Source of the DNA: Gammaproteobacteria bacterium
GTDB lineage: Bacteria; Pseudomonadota; Gammaproteobacteria; JACQPQ01
NCBI GenBank assembly: GCA_016207405.1
Contig: JACQPQ010000018.1
Location: 20,767-84,766 of the forward strand
Length of the DNA: 64,000 nt
Direction of reading: 5' to 3'
Shown here: positions 901 to 42,382 of the stretch, in pieces
How positions within the stretch are numbered: position 1 is the first letter of the stretch
Layout: every line of letters starts with the position of its first letter
Program-made: the position numbers and the translations under genes
Notes under the pieces: model-generated
The model's database searches: none
Told to the model about the DNA's origin: nothing
What the model saw: the letters and a program-made list of their open reading frames with translations, nothing else

Positions 901-2454
901 TTACTCTTTTTTGTCTTCCGAAAATTTAACGACCAAATAGAGCTGCCCTTCTCCTCTTTTAATTAAAAGGGCCAAGGGCTTGTCAGCAGGCGCCGCTTTT
1001 ACCAACTGGTTAAGATGTTCGCTATTTTTTACGATTGCGCGGTTAAATTCCAAAATAATATCGCCTTTTTTGAGCTCGGCATTCGCTGCAGGACTATTCG
1101 GCAGAACACCTTGAACAGAAACTCCGCCTTCTAAAATCTTAGCCGACGCACGCTCTTTTCCTGTCAAATCTTGAGTTTGAACGCCCAACCGATTGTGTTT
1201 GGGAAACACCTCTTCTTTCCCCTTCTCACGCATAGATGAAGCATATTCTGGAGGTAACTCTACAATGGCCACTCCAAAAACTTTCTTTTTGCCTTCGCGG
1301 ATCACTTCAATTTCAATTTTCGTTCCAGGCTTTGTCGGACCTACTAAATGGGGTAGATCAGAAGCATCCAGAATAATATGCGTATCATATCGGACAATCA
1401 CATCTCCAATTTTGAGACCCGCTTTATCTGCGGGGCTCCCCTCTACCACACTCGCCACCAAGGCGCCTTGTACCTCTTTTAAACCAAACGATTTAGCGAG
1501 ATCGGTTGTCATTTCTTGAAAGGCAACGCCCAACCATCCACGCAAAACACGCCCGGACTCTTTAAGTTGCTTGACTACTTCCATGGCGATATCGATGGGG
1601 ATTGCAAAAGAAACGCCCATATACCCCCCCGTTCGGCTTAAAATTTGGGCGTTCACCCCTACAACCTCTCCTTGTAAGTTGAATAAGGGGCCCCCTGAGT
1701 TACCCGGATTAATCGCAACATCGGTTTGAATAAACGGCACATAGCGTTCGGTTCGAAGACTTCTGCCTTTCGCGCTCACAATCCCTGCCGTTGCAGAACG
1801 TTCAAATCCAAAAGGGGAGCCAATCGCAAGCACCCAGTTCCCCACGGAAAGTTTTTCTGTACTCCCAATCTGAACAACGGGTAAATTCTGACCCTCTATT
1901 TTAAGAACCGCAATATCACTTTCTTCGTCTTTTCCAACGAGTTTGGCGGGTAATTCCCGATGGTCAACCAGTTTAACAATAATTTCTTTTGCGTTTCTAA
2001 CGACGTGCGCATTGGTCAGCACATAGCCTTCTTTTTCAATGATAAATCCAGAACCCAAGGAACGATGTTCGCGTTCTGGCCCAAAATCCCCCCCAAATTC
2101 CTCTCCAAAAAAACGTTTAAAAAACTCTTGGAAGGGGAGATCTTTCAAGTCTTCCGGTTGCAGAGATTTTTTTTCAGCCTCCTGAACCGTGCTGATATTC
2201 ACAACCGCCTCTCCATTTTGTTTCACCAACAGAGAAAAGTCCGGTAGCTTTTCTTGTTTTAACTCTGCAATGGTTGCTTCTAGGTTCTTTAAAACCTGCT
2301 TCACATCCTCAAGAGTTGATATTTCTTTGACTAATTTTGCGGGCTTTTCTATTTTCTCTGAGGTGCTGAGTGCATAGACCAAGAGGGGAACAACAGAAAT
2401 TCCCAGCAAACTCAGGACAAAAATGATTCTATTTTTTAAAATCCATGGAAACAT
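901..2454 (-). CDS. Periplasmic serine endoprotease of the DegP/DegQ (HtrA) family with two PDZ domains
   Basis: 517 aa with a signal peptide. Carries the trypsin-like GNSGGPL motif and two C-terminal PDZ-like segments. Confidence 0.9.
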   Translation of the reverse strand: MFPWILKNRIIFVLSLLGISVVPLLVYALSTSEKIEKPAKLVKEISTLEDVKQVLKNLEATIAELKQEKLPDFSLLVKQNGEAVVNISTVQEAEKKSLQPEDLKDLPFQEFFKRFFGEEFGGDFGPEREHRSLGSGFIIEKEGYVLTNAHVVRNAKEIIVKLVDHRELPAKLVGKDEESDIAVLKIEGQNLPVVQIGSTEKLSVGNWVLAIGSPFGFERSATAGIVSAKGRSLRTERYVPFIQTDVAINPGNSGGPLFNLQGEVVGVNAQILSRTGGYMGVSFAIPIDIAMEVVKQLKESGRVLRGWLGVAFQEMTTDLAKSFGLKEVQGALVASVVEGSPADKAGLKIGDVIVRYDTHIILDASDLPHLVGPTKPGTKIEIEVIREGKKKVFGVAIVELPPEYASSMREKGKEEVFPKHNRLGVQTQDLTGKERASAKILEGGVSVQGVLPNSPAANAELKKGDIILEFNRAIVKNSEHLNQLVKAAPADKPLALLIKRGEGQLYLVVKFSEDKKE

Positions 2455-10290: not shown

Positions 10291-10367
10291 GCGCCCGTAG
10301 CTCAGTTGGATAGAGTTCCTGGCTTCGAACCAGGCGGTCGGGGGTTCGAGTCCCTCCGGGCGCGCCA
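10291..10367 (+). tRNA. tRNA-Arg, anticodon TCG
   Basis: 77-nt cloverleaf GCGCCCG/.../CGGGCGC-G-CCA with anticodon loop CUUCGAA and T-loop GGTTCGAGTCC. Closely resembles E. coli tRNA-Arg. Confidence 0.85.
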
Positions 10368-10372
10368 GTTAA
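10322..10372 (+). repeat. attL, a 51-bp direct repeat comprising the 3' half of tRNA-Arg
   Basis: Identical to 16076..16126 (gcttcgaaccaggcggtcgggggttcgagtccctccgggcgcgccagttaa). Confidence 0.85.
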
Positions 10373-10380
10373 TCAAGGGG

Positions 10381-10869
10381 TTATACAACTTTCCGCAAAC
10401 CCATCTCAACCCCTTGCGGGACTTTTGCGGGAGCTACGTTCCGCAAAAGCTTGAGTACTGTGACTGTAGCGCTTTCCTTTTTCTCACACACTGCGTTTGC
10501 AGCACGAACTAAATTGGTTAATTCAGCTGCAGAATAGTGCGTGGTTATCCTCCCCGATCGATGCCCCAGTAAATCCTGTCGATCTTCAAAACTCACCCCT
10601 GCGGAACGCAAACGCCTCCCAAAGGTATGTTTCAGATCATGCACGCGAACGTCTATGCCAGCCAGTTTGCGCGCACGCTTCCAAGCTGAGTTGTTCATCT
10701 TGGTAACATAATGCCCTTTATAGGTAAAAACATATTCAGGATGCATCCCACGAACTTCTTCAAGCACCGATTTGGCAACACTGTTTAGCACTACCAATCG
10801 ATCCTCCCGGTTTTTGACAACATGAGCAGGGATCAAAAATACGCTCGTGTTTAACTCTGGTACAGACAC
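10381..10869 (-). pseudogene. Tyrosine recombinase/integrase remnant carrying only the C-terminal catalytic domain
   Basis: HDLKHTFGRRLRSAGVSFEDRQDLLGHRSGRITTHYSAAEL carries the R/HxxR/Y catalytic signature. Only about 160 aa remain and no N-terminal SAM/core-binding domain is recognisable upstream. Confidence 0.7.
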
Positions 10870-11274
10870 TTCCCACTCCCATCGTAGTTGACATACCTCT
10901 TAGAACACTGCGCAGTTACCTCTATCGACCAAAGTATCGATCCTTCTCGCGGCTACCGCGACGATTTTGAAATTGTAGTGGTTTACCGCTACCAGTACCA
11001 AACCATTTCTGTGTATGGCAAGCCTGGTACAAGCCACAATTTCAACGGCAAAACTTATGGTTGCGTGCTGTTTGAAGGCCACCCACTTGCCGCAGGTAGT
11101 GCTCCACGCGGTGCCAAAATGACTGAAGAACAGGCTACCGAGGTGTTCAATGCCTTGGTGAGTCTGTAAATCGGAAACAAGAGTATTTAAACCGTCATGT
11201 CCACGCATGACCTAGATTTGTAATGACCGTCACCACGTGGGTTTGGTGACACAGCCCTTTGAAAGGGGCAAAAG

Positions 11275-11910
11275 ATGAACAGTTTGCAATACAATGATGG
11301 CCTGCTCAATGCAGGTCGGACCCCGAAACTATTTTTGGTTCTCTCCAATGGAAATATCGTAAAGTTCCAGGGAGAAAACATCCCCGGCATCCTGGTCGTC
11401 AAATCCAGCAAATACCAAAAAAATGGCAAGTGGTCGAACACCACGTACCAACTGGAAATAGCTGATGGAGTTGGCGTCTGGGAAGCAACATCCCAAATGC
11501 ACCAAGGCTATTGGGATGCAATCGCTTCGTGGGAAGAAGCACAGGCGCACGTTATTGCACAAGGGGGCCACTTCGTTTCGGTGGAGGAAGTCAAACGAGT
11601 CGTTTTGGCTACGTGGGAAAAGGCCGCCGCTCGGTTTGATACCACAGCCGAAGCATTGGCGAAAATGACTGTGGCGCCAACGGAGCCAAAATCGTTTACC
11701 TTTGGAAGCCCAACCAACCGCGCCATCGAAAATGGCTATTGGGAATCCCCGAAGGAACACGATGGCGTGAGCTTCAAATTGGTTGATCCCACCAAAGGAT
11801 GGACAACGGGAAATGTGATCGCAGACAAACCTGGGATCGTGGTCACTAATGTAACGCATCGCTCAGGGATGCATGGAGGCTACTACACCATTCAGTATAT
11901 GGTTCAGTAG
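11275..11910 (+). CDS. Hypothetical island cargo protein with no recognisable domain
   Basis: 211-aa ORF followed by a hairpin and T-run at 11977..11995. Confidence 0.4.
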   Translation: MNSLQYNDGLLNAGRTPKLFLVLSNGNIVKFQGENIPGILVVKSSKYQKNGKWSNTTYQLEIADGVGVWEATSQMHQGYWDAIASWEEAQAHVIAQGGHFVSVEEVKRVVLATWEKAAARFDTTAEALAKMTVAPTEPKSFTFGSPTNRAIENGYWESPKEHDGVSFKLVDPTKGWTTGNVIADKPGIVVTNVTHRSGMHGGYYTIQYMVQ

Positions 11911-11976
11911 TCGTCCAACCGCACGGCTTTTGCCAACACCGACAATCTACAAGCAGCAATAAACGGTGTTAAACAG

Positions 11977-11995
11977 AGGCCCGCGGCCTTTTTAT
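11977..11995 (+). terminator. Putative rho-independent terminator
   Basis: aggcccgcggcct stem followed by ttttta. Confidence 0.4.
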
Positions 11996-12072
11996 TTGAG
12001 TCTCAAAAATAAACGGTCGATTATTTTTGAGTTATAATCGCTGCCTCAAGGGATAAAACCGAGACTGCTGAC

Positions 12073-12696
12073 ATGGACGAAACCACATCTCAAAAAACTA
12101 TTTCCTATCTGCGTGTTTCCACCATCGATCAAGATTTAGAAAAAAACAAAGCGGATATTCTGCATCTGGCGCACGAAAAACGTTTGGGTAAGGTTAAATT
12201 TGTGCAGGAAAAGATTTCGGGCGCCATCCCCTGGCGACAACGCAAGGTTGGCAAGGTGGTCAATCAACTCAAAAAGGGGGATGCATTGATTGTGAGTGAG
12301 CTTTCGCGCCTGGGTAGAAGCATGTTGGAATGCATGGAAATTCTTTCTATCGCCGCCCAAAAGGGTATTAGGGTTTATTCTGTCAAAGGTAACTGGCAAT
12401 TAGATGGCAGCATCCAAAGCAAAATCATCGCCATGGCCTTTAGTATGGCGGCGGAAATAGAGCGAGATCTGATCTCGAAACGCACGATTGAGGCCCTGCG
12501 CGCCAAAAAAGCCCAGGGCGTTACACTTGGCCGTCCTAAAGGCTCTGGCAGCAGCAAGCTCGACCCTGTTGCCCCTAAAATCCAAACAATGCTTAACAAG
12601 GGTGCAACCAAACGCGCCATTGCCAACCGTTTTAGCACCACGGAATCTAACCTGTATGTGTGGCTTAAGAAGCGGGAGGCCCTTGCAACAGCCTGA
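12073..12696 (+). CDS. Small serine recombinase of the resolvase/invertase family
   Basis: YLRVSTIDQ catalytic serine motif, the LSRLGRS motif and a C-terminal HTH. 207 aa. Confidence 0.85.
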   Translation: MDETTSQKTISYLRVSTIDQDLEKNKADILHLAHEKRLGKVKFVQEKISGAIPWRQRKVGKVVNQLKKGDALIVSELSRLGRSMLECMEILSIAAQKGIRVYSVKGNWQLDGSIQSKIIAMAFSMAAEIERDLISKRTIEALRAKKAQGVTLGRPKGSGSSKLDPVAPKIQTMLNKGATKRAIANRFSTTESNLYVWLKKREALATA

Positions 12697-13418
12697 TGAT
12701 TTCGGCCCTCTAATCCCCTGTATGCCTAGTGTTTGGTGGTTACAATTTGTTGCAAAACTTTACGTCCCAGTAACAGACAAGCGCCAAGCTTACGGCTATT
12801 ATCTAAACAATAGGATTTGGAATCGTCATGGCAGACCTAAAGCGCATCAAAAAATAAGGGCTTAGGCGTTAACAAAAAGTTGCCAAGTTTTACACAAATG
12901 TAACAGACAAACCCTAGAATCCGATGTACGCTTAAACTCACAAGGACAAAAACCCGTCAAGGCCGACCCGAAATCAAAATGCCATTTCAGGTGGATATAG
13001 AGATAGGCGAGTTTCGATAAAAACGAAGGTTTATTTTTGAGACTTTTAAGCACGTTTTTATCGGAGTTTTTCAAGGTGTAAAAAAACACAGTTTGAAAGA
13101 CAGGTTTACCCTTCCTCTTTATTCATTTTTTACCATCTTCTGAAATCTGTCTGTCACTATTCGTCTTTAGCCATTGGTTCGTAAAAAGCCATTAGGCGCA
13201 AGCGCATTTATACAAATGCTTTTGCATCTAGTGGTTTTCTCTTGAAGTTTATCTGATAAAAACTTCAAGCCATTTGGCTTCAGATCAGTTGTCATAATGA
13301 CGCTGCCTGTTGTCCAGATGGTTTGAAGTGAAGTCTAATTTCCCGTTTTTTTTTATTTTCCAATGGAGCCCTCTGCCGATGCAATACTCGGCTGGTTAAA
13401 AACCAAGGGGGAAACGGC

Positions 13419-14201
13419 ATGTTAACATTAGGCAATCTTTCTCTTAGTTCCAATGTTGCAATCGTTTTCGCTAAGGGCGAAAAACTCCGCGTAAGATTTA
13501 TGTGTTCCTGCGGAGAAGACCTTGCAACAGGGCAAGGCCAGTGGGGTAGTCAGGATTTGGTGTTTAAAAGACCCACTGTGGTTGTAGTCGAGGAATTGGG
13601 AGACTGGAGAGGCAAGTTGTCTTGCAAGCATCTTCGCTTTGCGAGAGCACTGCGTGAGGAAAGGCTAACCTCAGAGCTTTCGAATGCGGTATCTCCGTAT
13701 CCGAAGTTACGGACGGCTCTAAATCACGCAGGTGTACCGAAAATGGAGGTGCCGGGTGGCTTCAATCGTGCGTTGAAGTATGCGGACGAAATTCTCGTTC
13801 CTGATTACTCAACAACGTCTGGTTCATCCGGTTGGTTGGTCAAGAATTCTGAGGTGGGGAAGTATTTGAGAGGGTTACCCCCGCTAAAGGATTCTGGGGA
13901 GATAGGGCGCATTTGGGTTAACTTCGTTGGGTTCGTAAATACACCTGACGAGTGTTCAATCCGAGTTTGTTCCGAAGATCCGACTGGGCAGGAAGCACCC
14001 AGCTATTACGACTGGCCACGTGGCTGCTATATGTCGACCAACCACCAGATTTTTAGGGTGGAGTTCGATAAAAAAAGCCATCGCGTGAAGAAGATTTATA
14101 ATCAGACTCATGGCACCGAGCAGGGAGAGGTCTACTACAAGGTTCGCCCTGTAGGCAGATCGATATCTGTTGGCCAACGTCTGCCACGCGATTGCCGGTA
14201 G
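13419..14201 (+). CDS. Hypothetical protein with no recognisable domain, flanked by related palindromic sites
   Basis: 260-aa ORF with a GTG/ATG start. Confidence 0.35.
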   Translation: MLTLGNLSLSSNVAIVFAKGEKLRVRFMCSCGEDLATGQGQWGSQDLVFKRPTVVVVEELGDWRGKLSCKHLRFARALREERLTSELSNAVSPYPKLRTALNHAGVPKMEVPGGFNRALKYADEILVPDYSTTSGSSGWLVKNSEVGKYLRGLPPLKDSGEIGRIWVNFVGFVNTPDECSIRVCSEDPTGQEAPSYYDWPRGCYMSTNHQIFRVEFDKKSHRVKKIYNQTHGTEQGEVYYKVRPVGRSISVGQRLPRDCR

Positions 14202-14499
14202 CAAAACGCCCGCCCGGGGGTTAATCCGGGATGCCTTTTCAGGTTGTTATATGCTCGGCGTTTGTGGTGGAAACACTGCAGGCGCCTTTTATTTTTCAGT
14301 CTCCAAAATAAACCTTCTTTTTTACTTGAGACTTCCTGCCAGATTGAACAGAAGACAGGCGCGGCGGTACAAGTAGCCAAACATTTCCATTGACAGCTTT
14401 TCAGATCGCGGGGTAAGCTTGCTGGCAAGACTTAGTGGGACGACAGAAAATTTCTGGAATTAAAAACAAAATGAACGTCACTCTTGTTATCGGCGTCAC

Positions 14500-15225
14500 A
14501 TGCCATTAAAAAGCGAATTTTCAAGCATGCATAAGCCAAAGAAATCAGAGAACCCTAAGGTTACCCCCCTGACTTTTGAAGGTCTTGTTCACTCGATTCG
14601 TGCCATCCATGATGATCTGGCCGCTCAGGCTGATCGTGCCGTTAATATCAGCCTTACACTGCGGAACTGGTTGATTGGTTGTTACATCGCAGAGTATGAG
14701 TTGAATGGTGCCGATCGGGCCCATTATGGCGAGAAACTACTGCCGGAGCTTGCACACCAGCTTACCCAACTCAATGTCAGCAATTGCAACCGACGACAGT
14801 TGTATGATTACTTGAAGTTCTATCGTACCTATCCCCAAATAGTGCGGACGCTGTCGGCACAATTGAAACACTTGTCTCCCAAAACTATTCCCGCCGCCCT
14901 TGAAAAAGTGCCGACAGTGTCGGCACAATCTGGTCTACCACCGGAACGCCTCATCAGCTCCCTTTCCTATAGCATGTTTAAGTCTTTGGTAGAGATGGAT
15001 GACAACGTTAAACGAGCTTTCTACGAAATAGAATGCATTAAAGGCAATTGGTCCGTACGTGAACTTAAGAGGCAGATAGCTTCGCTCTACTTCGAGCGCT
15101 CTGGTTTGTCCTATGATAAGGTGAAATTGGCCAGGCTTGCTTGGGAGGGTACTGAAAAAGCAGAGGGCCAGGCCACGACTCAAGGTTTCCTGTCCGTTGT
15201 GAACTGTGGTGGGGTTGAAAACTAA
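14500..15225 (+). pseudogene. YhcG/DUF1016 family N-terminal domain only. The PD-(D/E)XK nuclease C-terminal domain is missing.
   Basis: AFYEIECIKGNWSVRELKRQIASLYFERSGLSYDK matches the DUF1016 N-terminal signature. The ORF ends without the nuclease half. Confidence 0.55.
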
Positions 15226-15403
15226 GTGATTGGCCTTTGGTGTCTGTCAGGGTTAGCGTTTTATTTTCCGCATCTATGGTTTGTACGCGGTAGTAGGCAC
15301 CTTTATGTAGCGGTTCGAAGGTGCGATTAGCGCGAATCATATCACCCACTTGGTAGCTGCTCACTTGTGCCTGTTGTGCTCGGGTAAGCCCTCGGTTAAC
15401 CAA
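15226..15403 (-). pseudogene. Fragment resembling the SH3-like domain of RecD/TraA-type helicases or relaxases
   Basis: LTRAQQAQVSSYQVGDMIRANRTFEPLHKGAYYRVQTID. The rest of the listed ORF is antisense to the YhcG fragment. Confidence 0.25.
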
Positions 15404-15440
15404 AATTGAGGTGTTGATTTCTTGATTAGACTTAAAGAGG

Positions 15441-15869
15441 GTGCATCAATCACATCCTAGGAATGAGCTAATTGCGAAAGTATTTTATGATACTGGTTTT
15501 ATTGAGAAGTGGGGTACAGGCACCACGAAAATGCTTACTCTGTGTAAGGAGCATAGGTTACCAGAACCGGAATTTTCGGAATATTCCGGCGGATTTTCCA
15601 TCCAATTTAAGTTTAAAGCCTCTTTGGGCGCCATTTCCCTAGCAATTAGAACTAAATCCCCTTTGAGTTCTAGGCAGTCTGACATCCTGCAGATCATTGG
15701 TAAGTATGGTAAAGCGAAGATGCAGTACATTTTGTCAGAGCTTAAAGATCCTCCAACCTCCAGGATGGTTTTAAAGGACCTAAATCATTTAAAGGAATTG
15801 GGTTTGATTGAGTTAGAAGGTAGTACAAAAGCAGCCTTATGGACTATTAAACCAAAAAATGCACCGTAA
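15441..15869 (+). pseudogene. C-terminal HATPase_c_4/wHTH fragment of a Schlafen/AlbA_2-type ATP-binding protein
   Basis: RNELIAKVFYDTGFIEKWGTGTTKMLTLCKEHRLPEPEFSEY matches the C-terminal domain of putative DNA-binding/RecG-like proteins. The N-terminal AlbA_2 part is absent. Confidence 0.5.
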
Positions 15870-16075
15870 TTTTTTATGCGAACTTTTTACGAACTTTATG
15901 CGAATCTTTTACGAACTTGTGGGCAACACCACATGCTGGTCACACTAAGACGCAAAAACCCTTGCGGGACTTTTGCGTATTTGGGTTATATGCCGTTATA
16001 GTTTGTTATGGGTTTGCAACGGGCGCCACACAAAATATATTGTTATTTATCAAGTTGTTAACTTTTACTTCTCTA

Positions 16076-16126
16076 GCTTCGAACCAGGCGGTCGGGGGTT
16101 CGAGTCCCTCCGGGCGCGCCAGTTAA
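16076..16126 (+). repeat. attR, the second copy of the 51-bp tRNA-Arg 3'-half repeat
   Basis: Exact duplicate of 10322..10372. Confidence 0.85.
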
Positions 16127-21786: not shown

Positions 21787-21936
21787 ATTTTAAAAACTTA
21801 TAGAATTGGGTTAAGCCTCCACCTGCCCCATCTCTCCACTAAGACTTTTTACAGGTCTTAGCACCCAGAGAAATGTGTCGGCACGTGTGTGTTCTGTTAA
21901 AATGCGGTTTATACCACGAAACCTTATCATACAACA

Positions 21937-30005: not shown

Positions 30006-31388
30006 TTAATGCTGGACTATGTTCAGCTCGCGCCGCTTTTCTTCAAGCACTCTTAAAGCTGCCATAAGGGCAACAGGGTTAAGTGCTTTCGCATACCCTA
30101 TCATAAGAGTAAGCTCAGCCCTTTCACTCTCCACTGCGCGACGTTTTTCTTGCCACATTTCTGTGGCCGCATCCGCCGCTTTATTCCTTGAGAGATACTC
30201 AGTCGCCCAGCTGAGACTATACTTTTCACTCTCCTTTTGTTGTAGAGCTTTGACAGCCGATTGAATCATGGTGGCATCAGCCGTTTTTAGGCAATCCAAC
30301 ACTTGGATGGAAAGATTATAGTCTTCCTGTACCAACGCCAGCCGTTTTTCTCTCCACGCTTCTGTGGCCGCATCGAGGGAAGCCGCTTTATTCGTTGAGA
30401 GATCCCAGTTAAGACTATCTTCTTCGCGCTCTTGTTCACGCCTTTTCTCTTGTAGCGTGTTTATAGCTGTTCGCAACTCTTGGGGAACAGCTATTTTTAG
30501 ATACTCTAACGCGAATGTGCAGTCAAACTGCTCGTACTCTCCGAGCGCTTTCTCTTGCATCACTCGTAAAGCGATGCGGATAGCCATGGGATTGCTTTCT
30601 GCCAGCAGTTTCATCCCAGCGGGCGAAAGGGGAGCCTCGCTCCAGGTAACCTGCACACTGCCATCATGCGCATGTTCATTGTCCTGTTGAGCTCCAACGA
30701 TTTTAGGATCGTTGAAGTGGATATTCGCACCTGGATCAAGGATCCATATGGCATCGACAAGCCTTTGGGTATTGGCTTGATTGTAATTTGCAGCCCTGTA
30801 ATCCGTAGGATTACCATCTGTGCTAACCACAGGAAAGCTGCATCGAACCAATTGATATTCCTTGGGGCCCAAGCTGAGAGTGGGGCGAAAATCTAGAAAA
30901 ACATCTGGAAAAATATTTGGTTGCTGTTGTTCAGCCTGCTCCTTCTCGCAGGCTTCTTTCCGTAGCCCTTCGACAATAATGCCAAGTGACTTTTCTGTCT
31001 TTGGGCTTAAATTCCCTCTATAGATTATTTCATCAGCAACATCAAATCGGTCCATGCTGATCATTTTTTCAAAAAAACAGGTTACTTTGCCCGCCAGCGT
31101 ATCGGGGGCATTATAAGAAGCAAAGCACTGCGTTAGTGCTTTATCAATGCTGATGGGTTCTCGGCATTTTTCTTTTTCGGAAACGACAGGAATACCCCTC
31201 AGGATACGCGAGTGCTCTGTTCGTTCAATCGCGTCGACCTCCATGGCCCTTTCCCGTATGGCCTCTCGCTCAGGATGAGACCAGCGACCAGTGAGATCCG
31301 AGGGATCTTTTTCTGGACAACCACTTTGTGCCTGTGCACAAAACAGAGTGGCCCAAAATAGCAGTGCAGTAACAAAAGTAGGTTTCAT
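30006..31388 (-). CDS. Secreted protein with internal tandem repeats and no recognisable domain
   Basis: Signal peptide MKPTFVTALLFWATLFCAQA. C-terminal modules of about 45 aa, ...A(I/V)xxLQEKRRE...S(W/L)..., are repeated at both the DNA and protein level. Confidence 0.45.
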   Translation of the reverse strand: MKPTFVTALLFWATLFCAQAQSGCPEKDPSDLTGRWSHPEREAIRERAMEVDAIERTEHSRILRGIPVVSEKEKCREPISIDKALTQCFASYNAPDTLAGKVTCFFEKMISMDRFDVADEIIYRGNLSPKTEKSLGIIVEGLRKEACEKEQAEQQQPNIFPDVFLDFRPTLSLGPKEYQLVRCSFPVVSTDGNPTDYRAANYNQANTQRLVDAIWILDPGANIHFNDPKIVGAQQDNEHAHDGSVQVTWSEAPLSPAGMKLLAESNPMAIRIALRVMQEKALGEYEQFDCTFALEYLKIAVPQELRTAINTLQEKRREQEREEDSLNWDLSTNKAASLDAATEAWREKRLALVQEDYNLSIQVLDCLKTADATMIQSAVKALQQKESEKYSLSWATEYLSRNKAADAATEMWQEKRRAVESERAELTLMIGYAKALNPVALMAALRVLEEKRRELNIVQH

Positions 31389-31536
31389 AGAAACCTCCTT
31401 TCAACAACGGGTTGTACGGCGCTAGCAAGTACAACTTGAAATTAGGAAATAAATAAGTCATGACCACACGGTCATGAGATCAAACATTGGGGAATGGACA
31501 ATATAGAAAATTCTGCTGCAAAACAACCACGGCTAG

Positions 31537-31725
31537 TAAGGGCCTGTAAAAGAATAACTTTTCCTTTTTAGCATCCCATCTTGGGCCCATCTTTGAATGT
31601 TTTGTTCTTCAGAAAAGCGCTTACATAGAATAACTATGCGCGCGTTTTTCGTTGAACAAAACATTCAAATCTGGACCCAATTCTCTGCGCTAAAAAGGAA
31701 AAGTTATTCTTTTACAGGCCCTAAG
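31537..31725. repeat. MITE-like nested palindromic element, copy 1
   Basis: Perfect 34-bp terminal inverted repeats (agggcctgtaaaagaataacttttcctttttagc) and an inner palindrome. About 90% identical to 40104..40290. Confidence 0.8.
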
Positions 31726-32761
31726 CAATTGGCGCGAGCTTCTTTTTTATTATCTCTGCAACTTTCACGGGGAGGTCGGGATCGTAAGTCCAGTCAGCTA
31801 AAGCACTCTTATTGGCAAGTGGGTTGTTGGAAAAGAGTAAGAGATCACATCCGGCGTGTATCGCCTTGACCACTCTTTCTTCTAAGCTAAAATTCTGTGC
31901 GAGCGCACCCATTTGCAGATCATCTGCCACGACGAGCCCTCGAAATTGAAGGTCAGATTTAAGAAGGCGGGAAATAATGTTAGGAGATAAAGTAGCGGGG
32001 AGAAAAGGATCCCATTTTCTCATCATGACATGGCCTACCATGATGAGATCAGCCATTCCTTCTCCAATCAAGTTTTTGAAGGGTATCCATTCTTCAGGTT
32101 GAAAACTTTCTGTGATGTCGACAAGCCCTGCATGCGTATCCCCTCTCGCGAATCCCAGCCCTGGGAAGTGTTTTAAGGTCGTTAACACACCTGCTTGCTT
32201 ATGTGCCTTGATAAAGGCGCTTGCATAGCGCACAACTTGCTCGGGATTTTCTGAAAAGGAACGTTCATAAGCACCAATAGGACAGGATTCGTTTTTTAAG
32301 TCCACAACCGGAGCAAAATTAATGGTAATGCCAAATTCTTTTAGAGTTTTAGCCATTCGATAGTAAAGTTCATAGGCCTCTCGTTCGTCATACTGGCCTG
32401 AAACGTATTGGCAAGAGGGAAATTCCTCAAAACCACAGGCTTTATTCAACCTTTGTACTTTCCCTCCTTCTTGGTCAATGGCAATCCATAGATCAGGGTT
32501 TGCCTTTTTTAAAGCATGGGTGAGTTCCTTCAGTTGTTTGGGACTTTCAATGTTATAAGAAAACAAAATAACACCGCCGACGATGCCTGTTTTAATATGG
32601 TGAAGGACTGTTTTTACAGCACTGTCTGCAGGCGTTTGACCTGGGAACCCTATCATAAGACGTTTACCAGCTGATGAAAAATTGAGCATGTCTCCTTGCG
32701 CTTTTTTAGATCTGTGTCCTATAGTGTGAATAGATGTTAATCTTACCATCACCACTTTCAC
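31721..32761 (-). CDS. nagZ: Beta-N-acetylhexosaminidase, glycoside hydrolase family 3
   Basis: GH3 motifs and PG-recycling NagZ length. The stop codon lies inside the right TIR of the MITE-like element. Confidence 0.8.
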   Translation of the reverse strand: MKVVMVRLTSIHTIGHRSKKAQGDMLNFSSAGKRLMIGFPGQTPADSAVKTVLHHIKTGIVGGVILFSYNIESPKQLKELTHALKKANPDLWIAIDQEGGKVQRLNKACGFEEFPSCQYVSGQYDEREAYELYYRMAKTLKEFGITINFAPVVDLKNESCPIGAYERSFSENPEQVVRYASAFIKAHKQAGVLTTLKHFPGLGFARGDTHAGLVDITESFQPEEWIPFKNLIGEGMADLIMVGHVMMRKWDPFLPATLSPNIISRLLKSDLQFRGLVVADDLQMGALAQNFSLEERVVKAIHAGCDLLLFSNNPLANKSALADWTYDPDLPVKVAEIIKKKLAPIA

Positions 32762-37652: not shown

Positions 37653-38252
37653 TTGCTTATGTCACCCCGTATCAAAATTTGTGGAATAACCCATGTTAAA
37701 GACGCCTTAAGTGCAGCAGCATTGGGTGCGGACGCCATTGGCCTTATTTTTTATCCTAAAAGCCCACGCTTTGTGACATTCGAGAAAGCTCGTGCGATTG
37801 TCCAGGCGCTGCCGCCTTTCCTGACTGTTGTTGGGGTAGTCGTTAATCCGACGACAGATGAACTGTTGCTTCTTCGAAAAGAGGTTCCTCTGGATCTTAT
37901 TCAGTTCCATGGAAATGAAACGTTAGAATTTTGTGAATCCTTGTCTTTCCCTTATCTGAAAGCATTTCGTGTTTCTACTCCGAATGAAGTCAACTTTTCA
38001 AAATGGGAAGAAAGTCATGCAAGAGGGTTGTTGATGGATATGGGGGATAGTGGCGAGAGTTATGTTAAATGCCGAAAGCCTTTGATTCTTGCAGGCGGTT
38101 TAACCCCTGAAACGGTCGGGATTGCCATCCAAAAGCTTAAGCCGAGTGCAGTGGATGTTTGCCGAGGGGTCGAAAGGGCGCCGGGCGTAAAGGACGAAAA
38201 AAAATTGCGCGCGTTTGTGAAAGCGGTGAAAATGGCTTCTGTTTTTACTTAA
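37653..38252 (+). CDS. trpF: N-(5'-phosphoribosyl)anthranilate isomerase
   Basis: KICGIT N-terminus and QFHGNE motif. Confidence 0.85.
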   Translation: MLMSPRIKICGITHVKDALSAAALGADAIGLIFYPKSPRFVTFEKARAIVQALPPFLTVVGVVVNPTTDELLLLRKEVPLDLIQFHGNETLEFCESLSFPYLKAFRVSTPNEVNFSKWEESHARGLLMDMGDSGESYVKCRKPLILAGGLTPETVGIAIQKLKPSAVDVCRGVERAPGVKDEKKLRAFVKAVKMASVFT

Positions 38253-38670
38253 CCCATTCCACCTTAACACGAAGCTCCCCTGCTGATTTTGCTAAAATCT
38301 TATCAATAGTTAAGCAAATCAGATTTTCTGTGTAACATACAGCAAGATGTAATGCATCCAACGTTCGTAAAGAAGTAGCGAAAGAAGCTATCCATTCACG
38401 TGCCTGGGTGTAATGCGGTTGCTCTAATAGTTTGAGGCAGTAATACTGCTTTTCAACGTGTGCCCGAAAAACGTTTATCAGAGCATGCGCAGAATCATTG
38501 GTGATCTCTTTCATGCGCATTTTTCGCGCAACAGCAGAACAGTATTCAACTTCTACTAATGGACTAATCACCGGATTTTTAATGCCGACAAGAATCTTTT
38601 CAACCTTCCTACTCAAAGGCTCTGGACAATAAAATGGGATAATAATAGATGTATCCAGATAATAACTCAA
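38245..38670 (-). CDS. PIN-domain toxin, VapC-like
   Basis: MSYYLDTSIIIPFY N-terminus. 141 aa. Confidence 0.75.
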   Translation of the reverse strand: MSYYLDTSIIIPFYCPEPLSRKVEKILVGIKNPVISPLVEVEYCSAVARKMRMKEITNDSAHALINVFRAHVEKQYYCLKLLEQPHYTQAREWIASFATSLRTLDALHLAVCYTENLICLTIDKILAKSAGELRVKVEWVK

Positions 38671-38912
38671 AACCTCGTCTCCTCTCGCTCCGAAGACAAG
38701 GCTTGGCTGAGCGTTCCTTTTATTTTAATGGTACTTCGAAAGTCTGCCATGCTAGGAAGGATGGATTCCAAATGATAAGGAATAAGGCGAGCGATAGGTT
38801 CATGTCTTCTTAGAATTAAAACTTCCTTACCATGCATTACACTATTTAATAGTTCATGCATATGAGCACGCATTTCTTTCACTTGAATGTGCATCATAGA
38901 ATTTTCTCTCAA
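38667..38912 (-). CDS. Phd/YefM-type antitoxin
   Basis: Overlaps the toxin start. IQVKEMRAHMHELLNSVMHGKEVLILRRHEPIARLIP matches the Phd/YefM fold pattern. Confidence 0.6.
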   Translation of the reverse strand: MRENSMMHIQVKEMRAHMHELLNSVMHGKEVLILRRHEPIARLIPYHLESILPSMADFRSTIKIKGTLSQALSSEREETRF

Positions 38913-38984
38913 ACGTACATATTAAGTGTACACCAAAAAAGCAGCGGATTCAAATGAAAATATTATTTTTTTTGTCATAGCGAT

Positions 38985-39011
38985 TTGACAATTCTGGGGG
39001 GGGGCTAATCT
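38985..39011 (+). promoter_or_regulatory. Putative sigma70 promoter (TTGACA, 15-nt spacer, TAATCT) whose spacer contains a G9 homopolymer tract
   Basis: ttgaca at 38985..38990, a G-run at 38996..39004 and taatct at 39006..39011. An AGGAGG RBS lies 8 nt before the ATG at 39033. Confidence 0.4.
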
Positions 39012-39032
39012 TTAAGTTAGGAGGATAAATTT

Positions 39033-40031
39033 ATGATGAAAAATAAAAGTGTAGGAAGTTACCTTTCAATTTTGTTTGCTTTGGGATTTATCGCAAGCGG
39101 TGTGGCGAGTGCGGCAGAAGTGGCAATGGAGGTTTTTAGCGAGGTCAGTGGGGGAGAGGAAGCGGCGCAGCCTTCGGGCCCACTCGTAAACATGATTGAC
39201 AGTCCTGAAAAGATAGGGATTGGTCTGCTTACAATGACTGATGCCACAGGTAGGGTAGATAATTGTACGGGCACAATGACAAGCATGGATGAGGCGACGA
39301 TGTTTTTTGTTTTAACCGCTGCGGACTGTGTCAAGCCTAGGAAAGGTAGTGTGAAATATAAAACTATTACCTTTCTGCTCCATAAAGGAAAACGTTCAAT
39401 AAAAGTAGATAAAATCGTCGTTCCTCCTGAGTGGAATAAAACTCATGAACTCAAATACAATTATGCACTCTTGCATCTTTCAATTACGCTAGAGGAATTA
39501 GTTCCTGATGCAAGTTATGGCTATGAAGGGGATTCGATGTTAGTAACTTATTCCATCTTGAAAGACAGAACGAGTGGGAAAGAACAAAATAAGACAGATC
39601 CATGGAGAAGTGGAGGGCCAGTTGAAGCGAGACTGTATGGATATCAGTGGGATAAGACATTCCATTCGTTAAAAACAAGCAAGATACCACACCCTTATTC
39701 TTGCCTTGGAGAACCATCCAGATGGAAGTTTTCGAATATTGACAGCTTTGCTTACTGGGAACTCGTTAAGCTCAAAGATGAGCAAGTCTGTCGCACGTTA
39801 GTAGATGCTCACTATGGGTTAGAGCAATTTATAAAAGGAGATAGCCCTTCTTTACGAGGAAGTCCAATGGTATTTGGTGCTCCTAATGGTATTCACCCCA
39901 ATATAGACACAGTCGTGGCGGCCATGCTTGTTTCGAAGAATTCGGAGATGAAGTCTATATTAGTCATCAACAACAAAATGCTTGGTCAATTTTGGAATTG
40001 GGCTAAACAGTTTCAAAAAAATAAGAAATAA
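39033..40031 (+). CDS. Secreted trypsin-like protein with a His-to-Asp substitution in the catalytic triad, a possible pseudo-protease
   Basis: Signal peptide. CTGTMTS...FVLTAADCV aligns to the CTGTLI..LTAAHC His box. NYALLHL aligns to DIALL. GDSPS aligns to the Ser box. Confidence 0.45.
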   Translation: MMKNKSVGSYLSILFALGFIASGVASAAEVAMEVFSEVSGGEEAAQPSGPLVNMIDSPEKIGIGLLTMTDATGRVDNCTGTMTSMDEATMFFVLTAADCVKPRKGSVKYKTITFLLHKGKRSIKVDKIVVPPEWNKTHELKYNYALLHLSITLEELVPDASYGYEGDSMLVTYSILKDRTSGKEQNKTDPWRSGGPVEARLYGYQWDKTFHSLKTSKIPHPYSCLGEPSRWKFSNIDSFAYWELVKLKDEQVCRTLVDAHYGLEQFIKGDSPSLRGSPMVFGAPNGIHPNIDTVVAAMLVSKNSEMKSILVINNKMLGQFWNWAKQFQKNKK

Positions 40032-40103
40032 GGACTATACCATCCCGTGCCAGAAAAGCCCCGGGAATCTTTTATCCGGGGCAGAGTTTCGTCTTGTCGG
40101 ATC

Positions 40104-40290
40104 TGAGGGCCTGTAAAAGAATAACTTTTCATCTTTAGCATCCCATCTTGGGCCCATCTTTGAACGTTTTGTCCTTCAGAAAAACGCTTACATAGAATAA
40201 CTATGCGCGCATTTTTCTTTGAACAAAACGTCCAAATCTGGACCCAATCTGGGCGCTAAAAAAAGAAAAGTTATTCTTTCACAGGCCCTA
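40104..40290. repeat. MITE-like nested palindromic element, copy 2
   Basis: Same TIRs and core as 31537..31725. Confidence 0.8.
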
Positions 40291-40376
40291 AGTGCTTATG
40301 CTTGATCCGACCTACAAAACTCCCGTGGGCTTGCCCATGGGAGTGCCCACTTTAGAGATCTCCTGTATACTTTTGC

Positions 40377-41579
40377 GTGATGAATTTCACTTCTCCTTAC
40401 AATCTGCCAGATGCGAGAGGACACTTTGGCCCTTACGGAGGGCGCTTTGTTGCGGAAACCCTGATGATACCCTTATTGGAACTTGAAAAAGCCTATGAAG
40501 AGGCATCACACAATCCTGCATTTTTGTCGGAACTTTCAGAGGAACTTCTCCATTTTGTAGGAAGACCCTCTCCGTTATATCTTGCAAAACGCTGGAGTAA
40601 AGCATTGGGGGGGGCAACCCTCTACCTCAAACGGGAAGACTTGAATCACACGGGTGCCCATAAAATTAACAATACGGTTGGACAAGCCTTGCTTGCGAAA
40701 AGGATGGGGAAAACACGCCTCATTGCAGAAACGGGGGCGGGGCAACATGGCGTTGCAACCGCTACGGTTGCTGCCAAATATGGATTTCAGTGTGTGGTCT
40801 ACATGGGTGTTAAGGATATGGCGCGCCAAGCTGTCAATGTCGAGCGGATGAAACTTTTAGGCGCAACTGTCCAACCGGTTCCGAGTGGCTCTCAAACTCT
40901 AAAAGATGCGCTAAATGAAGCGATGCGCGATTGGATCACCCATATCGACGATACGTTTTATGTGATCGGAAGCGTTGCAGGGCCTCATCCTTATCCTAAA
41001 ATGGTGCGAGATTTTCAGGCCGTCATTGGTAAAGAAACACGCCAGCAAATGATGGAACAAGCAGGGCGTTTGCCCGATAGTTTGGTCGCTTGTGTGGGCG
41101 GGGGTTCGAATGCCATTGGTCTTTTTTACCCCTTTTTGAATGAACCTTCTGTAACATGCTTTGGCGTAGAAGCTGCCGGGCACGGACTGAATACGGGGCA
41201 ACACAGTGCTTCTTTAGCCAAAGGGCGAGTGGGTGTTCTGCACGGCAATCGAACGTATCTTTTGCAGGATAGAGCGGGACAAATTCAAGAAGCGCATTCC
41301 ATTGCAGCCGGGTTAGATTATCCGGGCGTAGGGCCTGAACACGCTTGGCTAAAAGACTGTGGCAAAATTCGCACTGTGAGTGTAACCGATGAAGAAGCGA
41401 TATCGGCTTTTCATGAACTTGCATTACACGAAGGTATTCTGCCTGCATTAGAATCAAGCCATGCGTTAGCGTATGTCAAAAAAATAGCACCCACTTTCCC
41501 TAGCCATACCCTTATCGTCGTTAATCTTTCTGGACGGGGTGATAAAGACATTCATACTGTTTTATCTCAAACACAATGA
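40377..41579 (+). CDS. trpB: Tryptophan synthase beta chain
   Basis: [12 protein letters not shown]-lysine motif. Confidence 0.95.
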
Positions 41580-42382
41580 ACCGGATCACACATCGTTTTA
41601 AAGCGCTTAAAAGTCATGCGGAAAAAGCGCTTATTCCTTTTATAGCAGCTGGCGACAGGTGGGGAATAGAAGAAATGCCGCTCCTCTTGCAACACTGTGT
41701 TCGCGCGGGAGCAGATCTGCTGGAAATAGGCGTTCCTTTTTCCGATCCAATGGCGGATGGGCCTATTATTCAGGCCGCTTATGAGCGCGCATTGAAAAAA
41801 GGCGTTACTCTCGCAAACATCCTTCAGAGCATTGCCCGTTTTCGACAAGTGGATGCGATAACCCCCATTATTCTGATGAGCTATACTAACCCAATTGAAC
41901 AAATGGGCTATGGTGTCTTTGCAGAAAAAGCCCAAGCGGCTGGGGTGGATGGTTGCCTGGTTGTAGACTGCCCGTTTGAAGAAGGAGAGACTTTGCATAA
42001 AGCGCTCACAACGCATCAGATCGATCCTATCTTGCTTGTTTCTCCTACGACACCCGAACACAGAATAGAGCAAATTGCGGAAAGAGCGCGTGGCTTTTTG
42101 TATGGGGTTTCTTTGAAGGGCATTACAGGAGCGCATCATCTTGATGTTCAAGCGGTTACGGAAATGGTCCAAAAAATTCGTCGTTATAGCGAACTGCCTA
42201 TTGGTATTGGATTTGGTATTCACGATGCGAAAAGCGGAGCACTTGTGGCCAAAGTTGCCGATGCCGTTATTATAGGAAGTGCGTTCGTTAAAATCATGGA
42301 AAGTGGGACAGAAAATCGGGAACACATTCTGCAGCGTCTTCAAGATTTTCTGCATGAAATAAAGAATGCTATAACCCTATGA
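41576..42382 (+). CDS. trpA: Tryptophan synthase alpha chain
   Basis: TIM-barrel TrpA motifs. Overlaps the trpB stop. Confidence 0.95.

Follow-up and report, generated by a model that had tools for sequence, protein, structure and literature searches.

The nagZ reading frame in the DNA analysed here stops at the very edge of a long palindrome, which raises the questions of what this palindrome is, how it came to lie there and what it has done to the gene. All coordinates refer to the window, that is, the whole 64-kb stretch of DNA that was analysed. The palindrome occupies 182 bp at positions 31540-31721 (copy A) and is flanked by TAA on both sides. Its outer arms (31539-31572 and 31689-31722) each measure 34 nt and are 100% complementary, while the inner arms (31581-31616 and 31645-31680) span 36 nt and are 81% complementary; the nested palindrome of roughly 185 bp with 34-bp perfect terminal inverted repeats described in the initial annotation was thus recovered almost exactly. 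The same annotation had envisaged a strongly structured transcript, and the predicted folds were indeed very stable for either strand, at -103.7 kcal/mol for the plus strand (z = -18 relative to shuffles) and -109.9 kcal/mol for the minus strand (z = -16). The conserved core of the element reads GGGCC...GGCCC, and position 31721 is the only base of the nagZ stop codon that falls within it.

A 25-nt end pattern matched four times in the window, compared with 0.00 matches expected from 100 shuffles. The second copy of the element (copy B), at 40107-40288, has 168 of its 182 bases in common with copy A (92% identity), and these two are the only copies visible in the source organism, for which the 64-kb window was available. 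Copy A is located between nagZ and a 460-aa ORF, both on the minus strand; copy B is found 88 nt upstream of the start of trpB, with a trypsin-like ORF on its other side. The 60-nt flanks of the two copies agree at only 9/60 and 17/60 positions, which is chance level; since these flanks are unrelated, a segmental duplication, named at the outset as the outcome that would speak against a mobile element, is excluded. Both the ends and the duplication are perfect in copy A, whereas copy B has mismatched ends and a degenerate duplication (TGA|TAA). The only ORFs inside the element, of 43 and 90 aa, lack their ATG in other lineages and were rejected as genes for want of conservation. The features of the two copies and of the nagZ 3′ region are as follows.

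31537-31539, no strand assigned: left target-site duplication of copy A, TAA, present on both sides of the element
31540-31572, no strand assigned: left terminal inverted repeat of copy A, the first 21 nt of which, GGGCCTGTAAAAGAATAACTT, are the family-wide end
31573-31688, minus strand: interior of copy A, forming an imperfect hairpin whose internal loops are conserved; minus is the better-folding ("bottom") strand
31689-31721, no strand assigned: right terminal inverted repeat of copy A, placed by the inverted-repeat match and the end pattern
31722-31724, no strand assigned: right target-site duplication of copy A, TAA, present on both sides
31721-31723, minus strand: nagZ stop codon TAG, placed by the ORF end and the empty-site reconstruction
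31721-32761, minus strand: nagZ, identified by PF00933 (E 1e-60), homologue alignment and solved NagZ chains
31458-31477, minus strand: terminator-like hairpin with a T-rich tail, called by consensus scan only
40104-40106, no strand assigned: left flank of copy B, TGA, a degenerate duplication, from flank comparison
40107-40288, no strand assigned: copy B of the MITE, 182 bp with imperfect ends, 92% identical to copy A
40289-40291, no strand assigned: right flank of copy B, TAA, from flank comparison

Relatives, target site and transposase partners

Relatives of the element were sought by scanning 185,579 species-representative genomes with the query GGGCCTGTNAAAGAATAACTT. This returned 45 loci, nearly all from Chloroflexota (Anaerolineae) MAGs, together with one Nitrospinota MAG; all-against-all BLASTN among these genome loci found no long shared elements. 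The 21-nt end was present in at least 120 metagenome loci, and the ends are nearly invariant across phyla. A distant BLASTN search of PLSDB plasmids gave no match, IMG/VR viral contigs matched neither the end sequence nor the end combined with an interior motif, and a literature search with the end sequence as text returned only unrelated primer matches. When ends were paired, with up to five mismatches allowed in the opposite end, they enclosed elements of 75-78, 108-123, 144-164, 176-182, 267 and 320 bp. Unpaired ends at three loci (L037, L010 and L031) have no adjoining transposase and are diverged or solo ends. One type, represented by L130, was encountered at least six times in related metagenome samples, on different contigs. 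In metagenome loci such as L050, L063, L065, L080, L096, L102, L108-L112, L119 and L122 the repeat lies about 75 nt from the contig end, as it does in many of the matches, and a single assembly pair (JAANMX01 and JAANMY01) accounts for dozens of metagenome matches. Some organisms carry the repeat in high copy number, and short-read assemblies break at it.

Identical 3-nt flanks were found for 22 of 48 non-redundant elements and were mostly TTA or TAA. This set also included TAT|TAT and TAC|TAC, which are not palindromic and therefore cannot be extensions of the inverted repeat. Reading outward from 179 non-redundant ends, the flank has C at -4 (65%), T at -3 (88%), A or T at -2 (46% each) and A at -1 (89%), and a G follows the duplication in 18 of the 22 reconstructed targets. 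This flank composition and the trailing G define the target as C|TWA|G, with the central TWA duplicated; the duplication of copy A has the context gTAAg. At L009 (~401-485) one MITE abuts another, and at L090 (2026-2110) a 78-bp MITE abuts a full-length insertion sequence, with the TTA/TAA between the neighbours being shared in each case. An element end plus its duplication recreates a CTWAG-like target, and tandem insertion may in this way be favoured.

Insertion sequences carrying the same ends around a transposase gene connect the palindrome to a known family. Full-length insertion sequences of this kind are 1.3-1.5 kb long. The one at L064 459-1877 measures 1419 bp and has perfect ends of 24 nt (GGGCCTGTAAAAGAATAACTTCCC) flanked by TAA|TAA; its ORFs match PF07592 (DDE_Tnp_ISAZ013) with E values of 1e-40 and 3e-58, and its ends are identical to the 21-nt end of copy A. 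By TBLASTN, an L064-type transposase was found beside the end sequence in L058, L088, L090, L095, L105, L136 and L154, and the same ends surround the transposase gene in L064, L090, L136 and L154. The intact 407-aa ORF of L154 scored 570 bits against NF033519 ("ISAzo13 family transposase", cutoff 200) and matched PF07592 with an E value of 8e-136; all eight transposase-bearing loci are of the ISAzo13 type. Unlike the single ORF of L154, the transposase in most full-length copies (L058, L064, L088, L090, L105 and L136) breaks near residue 105 and occupies two frames. At this junction in L064, the motif G-AAAAAAA-G lies at 1465-1473 (minus strand), just before the stop of the first ORF, and the second frame is -1, a configuration that suggests programmed -1 frameshifting in the split transposases.

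Inverted repeats, a target-site duplication, small size without coding capacity, occurrence in multiple contexts and ends shared with autonomous elements are all found for the 182-bp palindrome, and we consider it highly probable that it is a MITE and a non-autonomous relative of ISAzo13-family insertion sequences. The MITE proposed in the initial annotation has accordingly gained a 3-bp duplication, relatives and transposase-bearing partners in addition to its inverted repeats and the absence of a conserved ORF. Its 21-nt ends are identical to those of the full-length elements of the family defined by NF033519 and PF07592, but it lacks a transposase, measures 182 bp rather than 1.3-1.5 kb, and has an interior that bears no relation to the sub-terminal regions of the recovered full-length copies. 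Both ISAzo13 and the eukaryotic Zator superfamily make 3-bp duplications (PMC10045372), as does the element in the window, and the 33-bp inverted repeats and TAA or TTA duplications of amphioxus Zator-1 (PMC12905397) have their counterparts in its ~33-bp inverted repeats and TAA/TTA duplications.

The shared ends and the length of the duplication point to mobilisation by an ISAzo13 transposase. In the proposed mechanism, such a DDE transposase, supplied in trans, would recognise the conserved ends of ~21-24 bp and insert the element at a site resembling C|TWA|G, the central 3 bp of which would be duplicated. The target of copy A would have been a TAA, read as TTA on the coding strand, that overlapped the penultimate nagZ codon upstream of the probable terminator; copy B would have inserted between the trypsin-like gene and trpB. 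A TBLASTN search with the L064 protein found no transposase of the ISAzo13 type in the 64-kb window. Because of this, and because the duplication and ends of copy B have decayed, both copies are most likely stranded relics; the simplest reading is that they differ in age or came from different source lineages. A partner transposase may lie elsewhere in the same genome.

No MITE derived from ISAzo13 was found to be described in the searchable literature, and to our knowledge ISAzo13 is among the least studied families of insertion sequences. The present findings tie widespread short palindromic repeats of Chloroflexota, Nitrospinota and a deep gammaproteobacterial MAG to this family, and define the ends of the family and its target, C|TWA|G, of which 3 bp are duplicated, in parallel with the eukaryotic Zator transposons. 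They should be of moderate interest, mainly to specialists in insertion sequences and MITEs and to those concerned with annotation.

The 3′ end of nagZ

The product of nagZ is a GH3 beta-N-acetylhexosaminidase; the corresponding database protein (P0001) has 322 aa and would start at 32689. Its TAG stop codon had been read as the last three nucleotides of the right terminal inverted repeat. The stop does lie at the end of the element, but it straddles the junction, consisting of two bases of the right duplication (31722-31723, within the TAA at 31722-31724) and the outermost G of the element (31721). With copy A and one copy of the duplication excised, the predicted empty site in nagZ reads ...GGCTAGTAAGCAATTGG... 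and the coding tail becomes ...CCA ATT GCT TAC TAG, or APIAY*. On this reconstructed tail, NagZ before the insertion would have been one residue longer, ending in Tyr, and the insertion would have cost the protein one codon. The duplication and the first G of the element would together have made the new in-frame TAG, with the terminal Tyr as the only loss, and the insertion would have been nearly neutral.

NagZ is also about 20-30 C-terminal residues shorter than all aligned homologues, the missing region having the consensus G..S...I..SY.RI..LK, and solved NagZ chains likewise run further past the aligned region. Translation of three frames beyond the element revealed no recognisable remnant of the missing C-terminal helix. 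With the duplication intact, the insertion is not what caused this shortening. The earlier proposal that the insertion truncated or re-terminated nagZ therefore holds for the new stop and the loss of one Tyr, but not for the missing ~20-30 residues. The closest NagZ relative (P0002, 56% identity) is encoded on a contig, L166, that has a full-length C-terminus and no element; it was rejected as a true empty site because the locus is not syntenic.

A consensus scan identified a terminator-like hairpin on the nagZ strand at 31477-31458, about 60 nt beyond the insertion. As this is probably the terminator native to nagZ, the element is placed between it and the end of the coding sequence. The element itself was considered as an intrinsic terminator and rejected, as it was not called by the terminator scan and no T-run follows the hairpin. 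What is certain is that a very stable hairpin of ~185 nt now lies in the nagZ 3′ region. The better-folding strand of copy A is the nagZ sense strand, which makes transcription of this copy as a structured RNA plausible; the nagZ transcript probably carries the hairpin, and the processing or stability of the nagZ mRNA may be affected.

A TWA target may be expected to coincide often with stop codons, and in L009, L014, L019, L030, L042 and L064 the target coincides with the native stop of an ORF (100-982 codons). The insertions at L064 456-458 and in L009, L014, L019 and L042 fall exactly on the native stops of long ORFs, where the duplicated TAA/TAG keeps the gene terminated. In L030 (2980-2989) the insertion lies immediately after the 3′ end of a tRNA. 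Read inward, the element end supplies a stop in all three frames, as TAA/TAG at the junction, as TAA in GGC CTG TAA and as TAA in GGG CCT GTA AAA GAA TAA. For annotation, repeats of this kind are often located exactly on stop codons and can supply them, present stops in all three frames and break metagenome assemblies.

Strand asymmetry of the fold and rival origins

Elements of about 180 bp form a sub-family whose fold differs between strands. Full-length relatives of this size are found in a Nitrospinota MAG (L004/L048, 71% identity over the whole length), in L053 and in a group comprising L130, L156, L085, L065, L145 and L163; the hairpin was compared across four divergent lineages, namely the window, L004/L048, L053 and the L130 group. 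For the bottom strand, corresponding to the minus strand of the window, the consensus fold has 72 pairs with 94% of cells paired, compared with 37-54% when the partners were slid by 1-3 columns. Compensatory double changes are present in 28 of the 72 pairs, a level reached by 0 of 500 shuffles. The energy of the consensus fold is -99.5 kcal/mol for the bottom strand and -63.3 kcal/mol for the top strand, and the bottom strand folds better in each of six members. Its advantage amounts to 6-38 kcal/mol when RNA parameters are used and to 3.5-11 kcal/mol under DNA parameters. In an orientation-blind self-alignment ignoring wobble, mismatch cells of the top strand comprised 29 A·C versus 6 G·T, an A·C on top being a G·U on the bottom, and almost all remaining top-strand mismatches were pyrimidine·pyrimidine. 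Two bottom-strand modules with tandem G·A pairs are conserved (CAGAUUU opposite AAAGAUG), and 75% of the unpaired, non-apical bases of this strand are purines. In other sub-families of MITEs that share these ends, the asymmetry is slight. The asymmetry between the arms is itself not universal in the ~180-bp sub-family, since a 139-bp, nearly symmetric variant at L163 428-566 has the ATCYCATCTT loop version in both arms.

A purely parasitic element moved as double-stranded DNA by cut-and-paste would not be expected to have this asymmetric fold and these conserved internal loops. It is conceivable, if rather unlikely, that the ~180-bp form carries a strand-specific functional fold, as RNA or single-stranded DNA, under purifying selection across phyla, and that the ISAzo13-type ends serve merely for mobility. 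The compensated pairs in four divergent lineages, the same favoured strand in every member with either set of parameters, the bias of the top-strand mismatches and the conserved G·A modules all fit such a function, as does the slight asymmetry of other sub-families with the same ends. However, only four independent lineages contribute, so that the conserved mismatches may be inherited founder sequence, and DNA-level processes can also yield compensatory changes in palindromes. The orientation of the favoured strand relative to flanking genes is mixed, roughly three sense and five antisense, so that read-through of this strand is not consistent; read-through transcription was for this reason rejected as the cause of the asymmetry. 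Rfam 15 contained nothing relevant, either in a gathering-score scan of the whole window or in a permissive scan of 31400-31850, apart from spurious matches to miRNA-hairpin models from plants and animals, which at 18-50 bits fell far short of the gathering scores (53-211). A promoter scan found no conserved promoter in the element; a weak promoter-like match inside copy B is absent from other lineages. With these points in the balance, the sub-family can be put forward only tentatively as a mobile, structured nucleic-acid module whose same-strand fold, with G·U pairs and two tandem G·A motifs, has been kept across Gammaproteobacteria, Nitrospinota and other lineages. Should this be so, ISAzo13 ends might, with a similarly low probability, enclose not filler but a hairpin that functions as RNA or as single-stranded DNA, for instance in transposition of the element itself or by acting on host transcripts. 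A functional strand-specific fold would mean that a structured RNA or single-stranded DNA module has been spread across phyla by a DDE transposon.

MITEs that form long RNA hairpins when co-transcribed are familiar from the Correia/NEMIS elements of Neisseria and the ERIC/IRU elements of enterobacteria. Elements of the Correia/ERIC type are 100-200 bp long, have inverted repeats and are located in intergenic regions or 3′-UTRs, where some affect mRNA processing depending on their orientation. Correia elements have a TA duplication, IHF sites and promoters, and the Correia and ERIC families are each confined to one genus or family. The element described here resembles them in size, inverted repeats, intergenic or 3′-UTR position and long hairpin. 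It differs from Correia elements in duplicating TWA and in showing no conserved promoter, and from both Correia and ERIC in having no sequence similarity to them and in belonging to a family that spans phyla. In kind it belongs with ordinary bacterial MITEs such as Correia, ERIC and Nezha, from which it is set apart by its ISAzo13 parentage, by the 3-bp TWA duplication in CTWAG and by ends that are near-invariant across phyla.

A very improbable alternative to ISAzo13 parentage is that the MITE was moved by another transposase family, either IS5/PIF-Harbinger, with TWA duplications, or IS630/Tc1-mariner, with TA. Tourist/PIF-Harbinger MITEs and IS5 elements of the IS1031/IS427 group share with the window element 3-bp TWA/TNA duplications and G-rich GGGCC/GAGCC ends, and its TWA duplications together with the GGGCCTGT... 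ends do recall Tourist/PIF-type MITEs; in addition, the N-terminus of the L154 transposase weakly matches NF033545 (IS630), at 41 bits against a cutoff of 100. However, all full-length elements with these ends encode proteins of the ISAzo13 family, which differs from the IS5/DDE_Tnp_1 transposase. An IS5/PIF-Harbinger-type MITE was rejected since no IS5 or Harbinger transposase, nor one of IS630, is present at the eight transposase-bearing loci, and an IS630/Tc1-mariner-type MITE, for example a Correia-like one, since the duplications, including TAT|TAT and TAC|TAC, are 3 bp and not the 2-bp TA. Finally, a segmental duplication or an immobile host palindrome (a terminator or REP-like sequence), which just two copies in 64 kb and the location of copy A where a terminator is expected might have suggested, is refuted by the same ends and target duplications in many unrelated contexts and phyla, some with a transposase, and is further opposed by the unrelated flanks of the two copies, by the missing T-run with a separate terminator-like hairpin ~60 nt on, and by a length of 182 bp, far larger than REP elements.

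Host and genomic neighbourhood

Ribosomal protein S2 encoded in the window has at most ~67% identity to any other S2 in the database, and its named top matches are from Gammaproteobacteria. A t44 RNA (RF00127, the rpsB leader; 71.7 bits) at 21810-21909 on the minus strand, upstream of rpsB-tsf-pyrH, fits a gammaproteobacterial host. The distance of NagZ and S2 from their homologues, taken together with t44, thus places the host in a deep, uncultured gammaproteobacterial lineage. A contig of 8.7 kb from another sample, reached by protein look-up, falls for the most part within the region covered by the window.

Several neighbouring regions have features of their own. The 460-aa ORF downstream of copy A (30006-31388, minus strand) has no Pfam match and, by eye, a signal-peptide-like hydrophobic N-terminus; it contains an internal repeat with a spacing of 201 nt, 43 nt of which are 79% identical (30131-30173 and 30332-30374). 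In the trp cluster (37653-42382), trpF (37653-38252) is parted from trpB (40377-41579) and trpA (41576-42382), and the gap between trpF and trpB contains a PIN/Phd toxin-antitoxin pair (38245-38912, minus strand), a trypsin-like secreted protein (39033-40031) and copy B. This cluster appears to have collected mobile DNA. Elsewhere in the window, a tRNA-Arg(TCG) gene lies at 10291-10367 and its 3′ 54 nt are repeated with 98% identity at 16073-16126. Between the repeats are a truncated tyrosine-integrase ORF (10384-10869, minus strand), a serine resolvase (12073-12696) and a DUF1016 protein (14500-15225), and the region 10291-16126 as a whole resembles what is left of an island that had integrated at the tRNA, complete with attL and attR.
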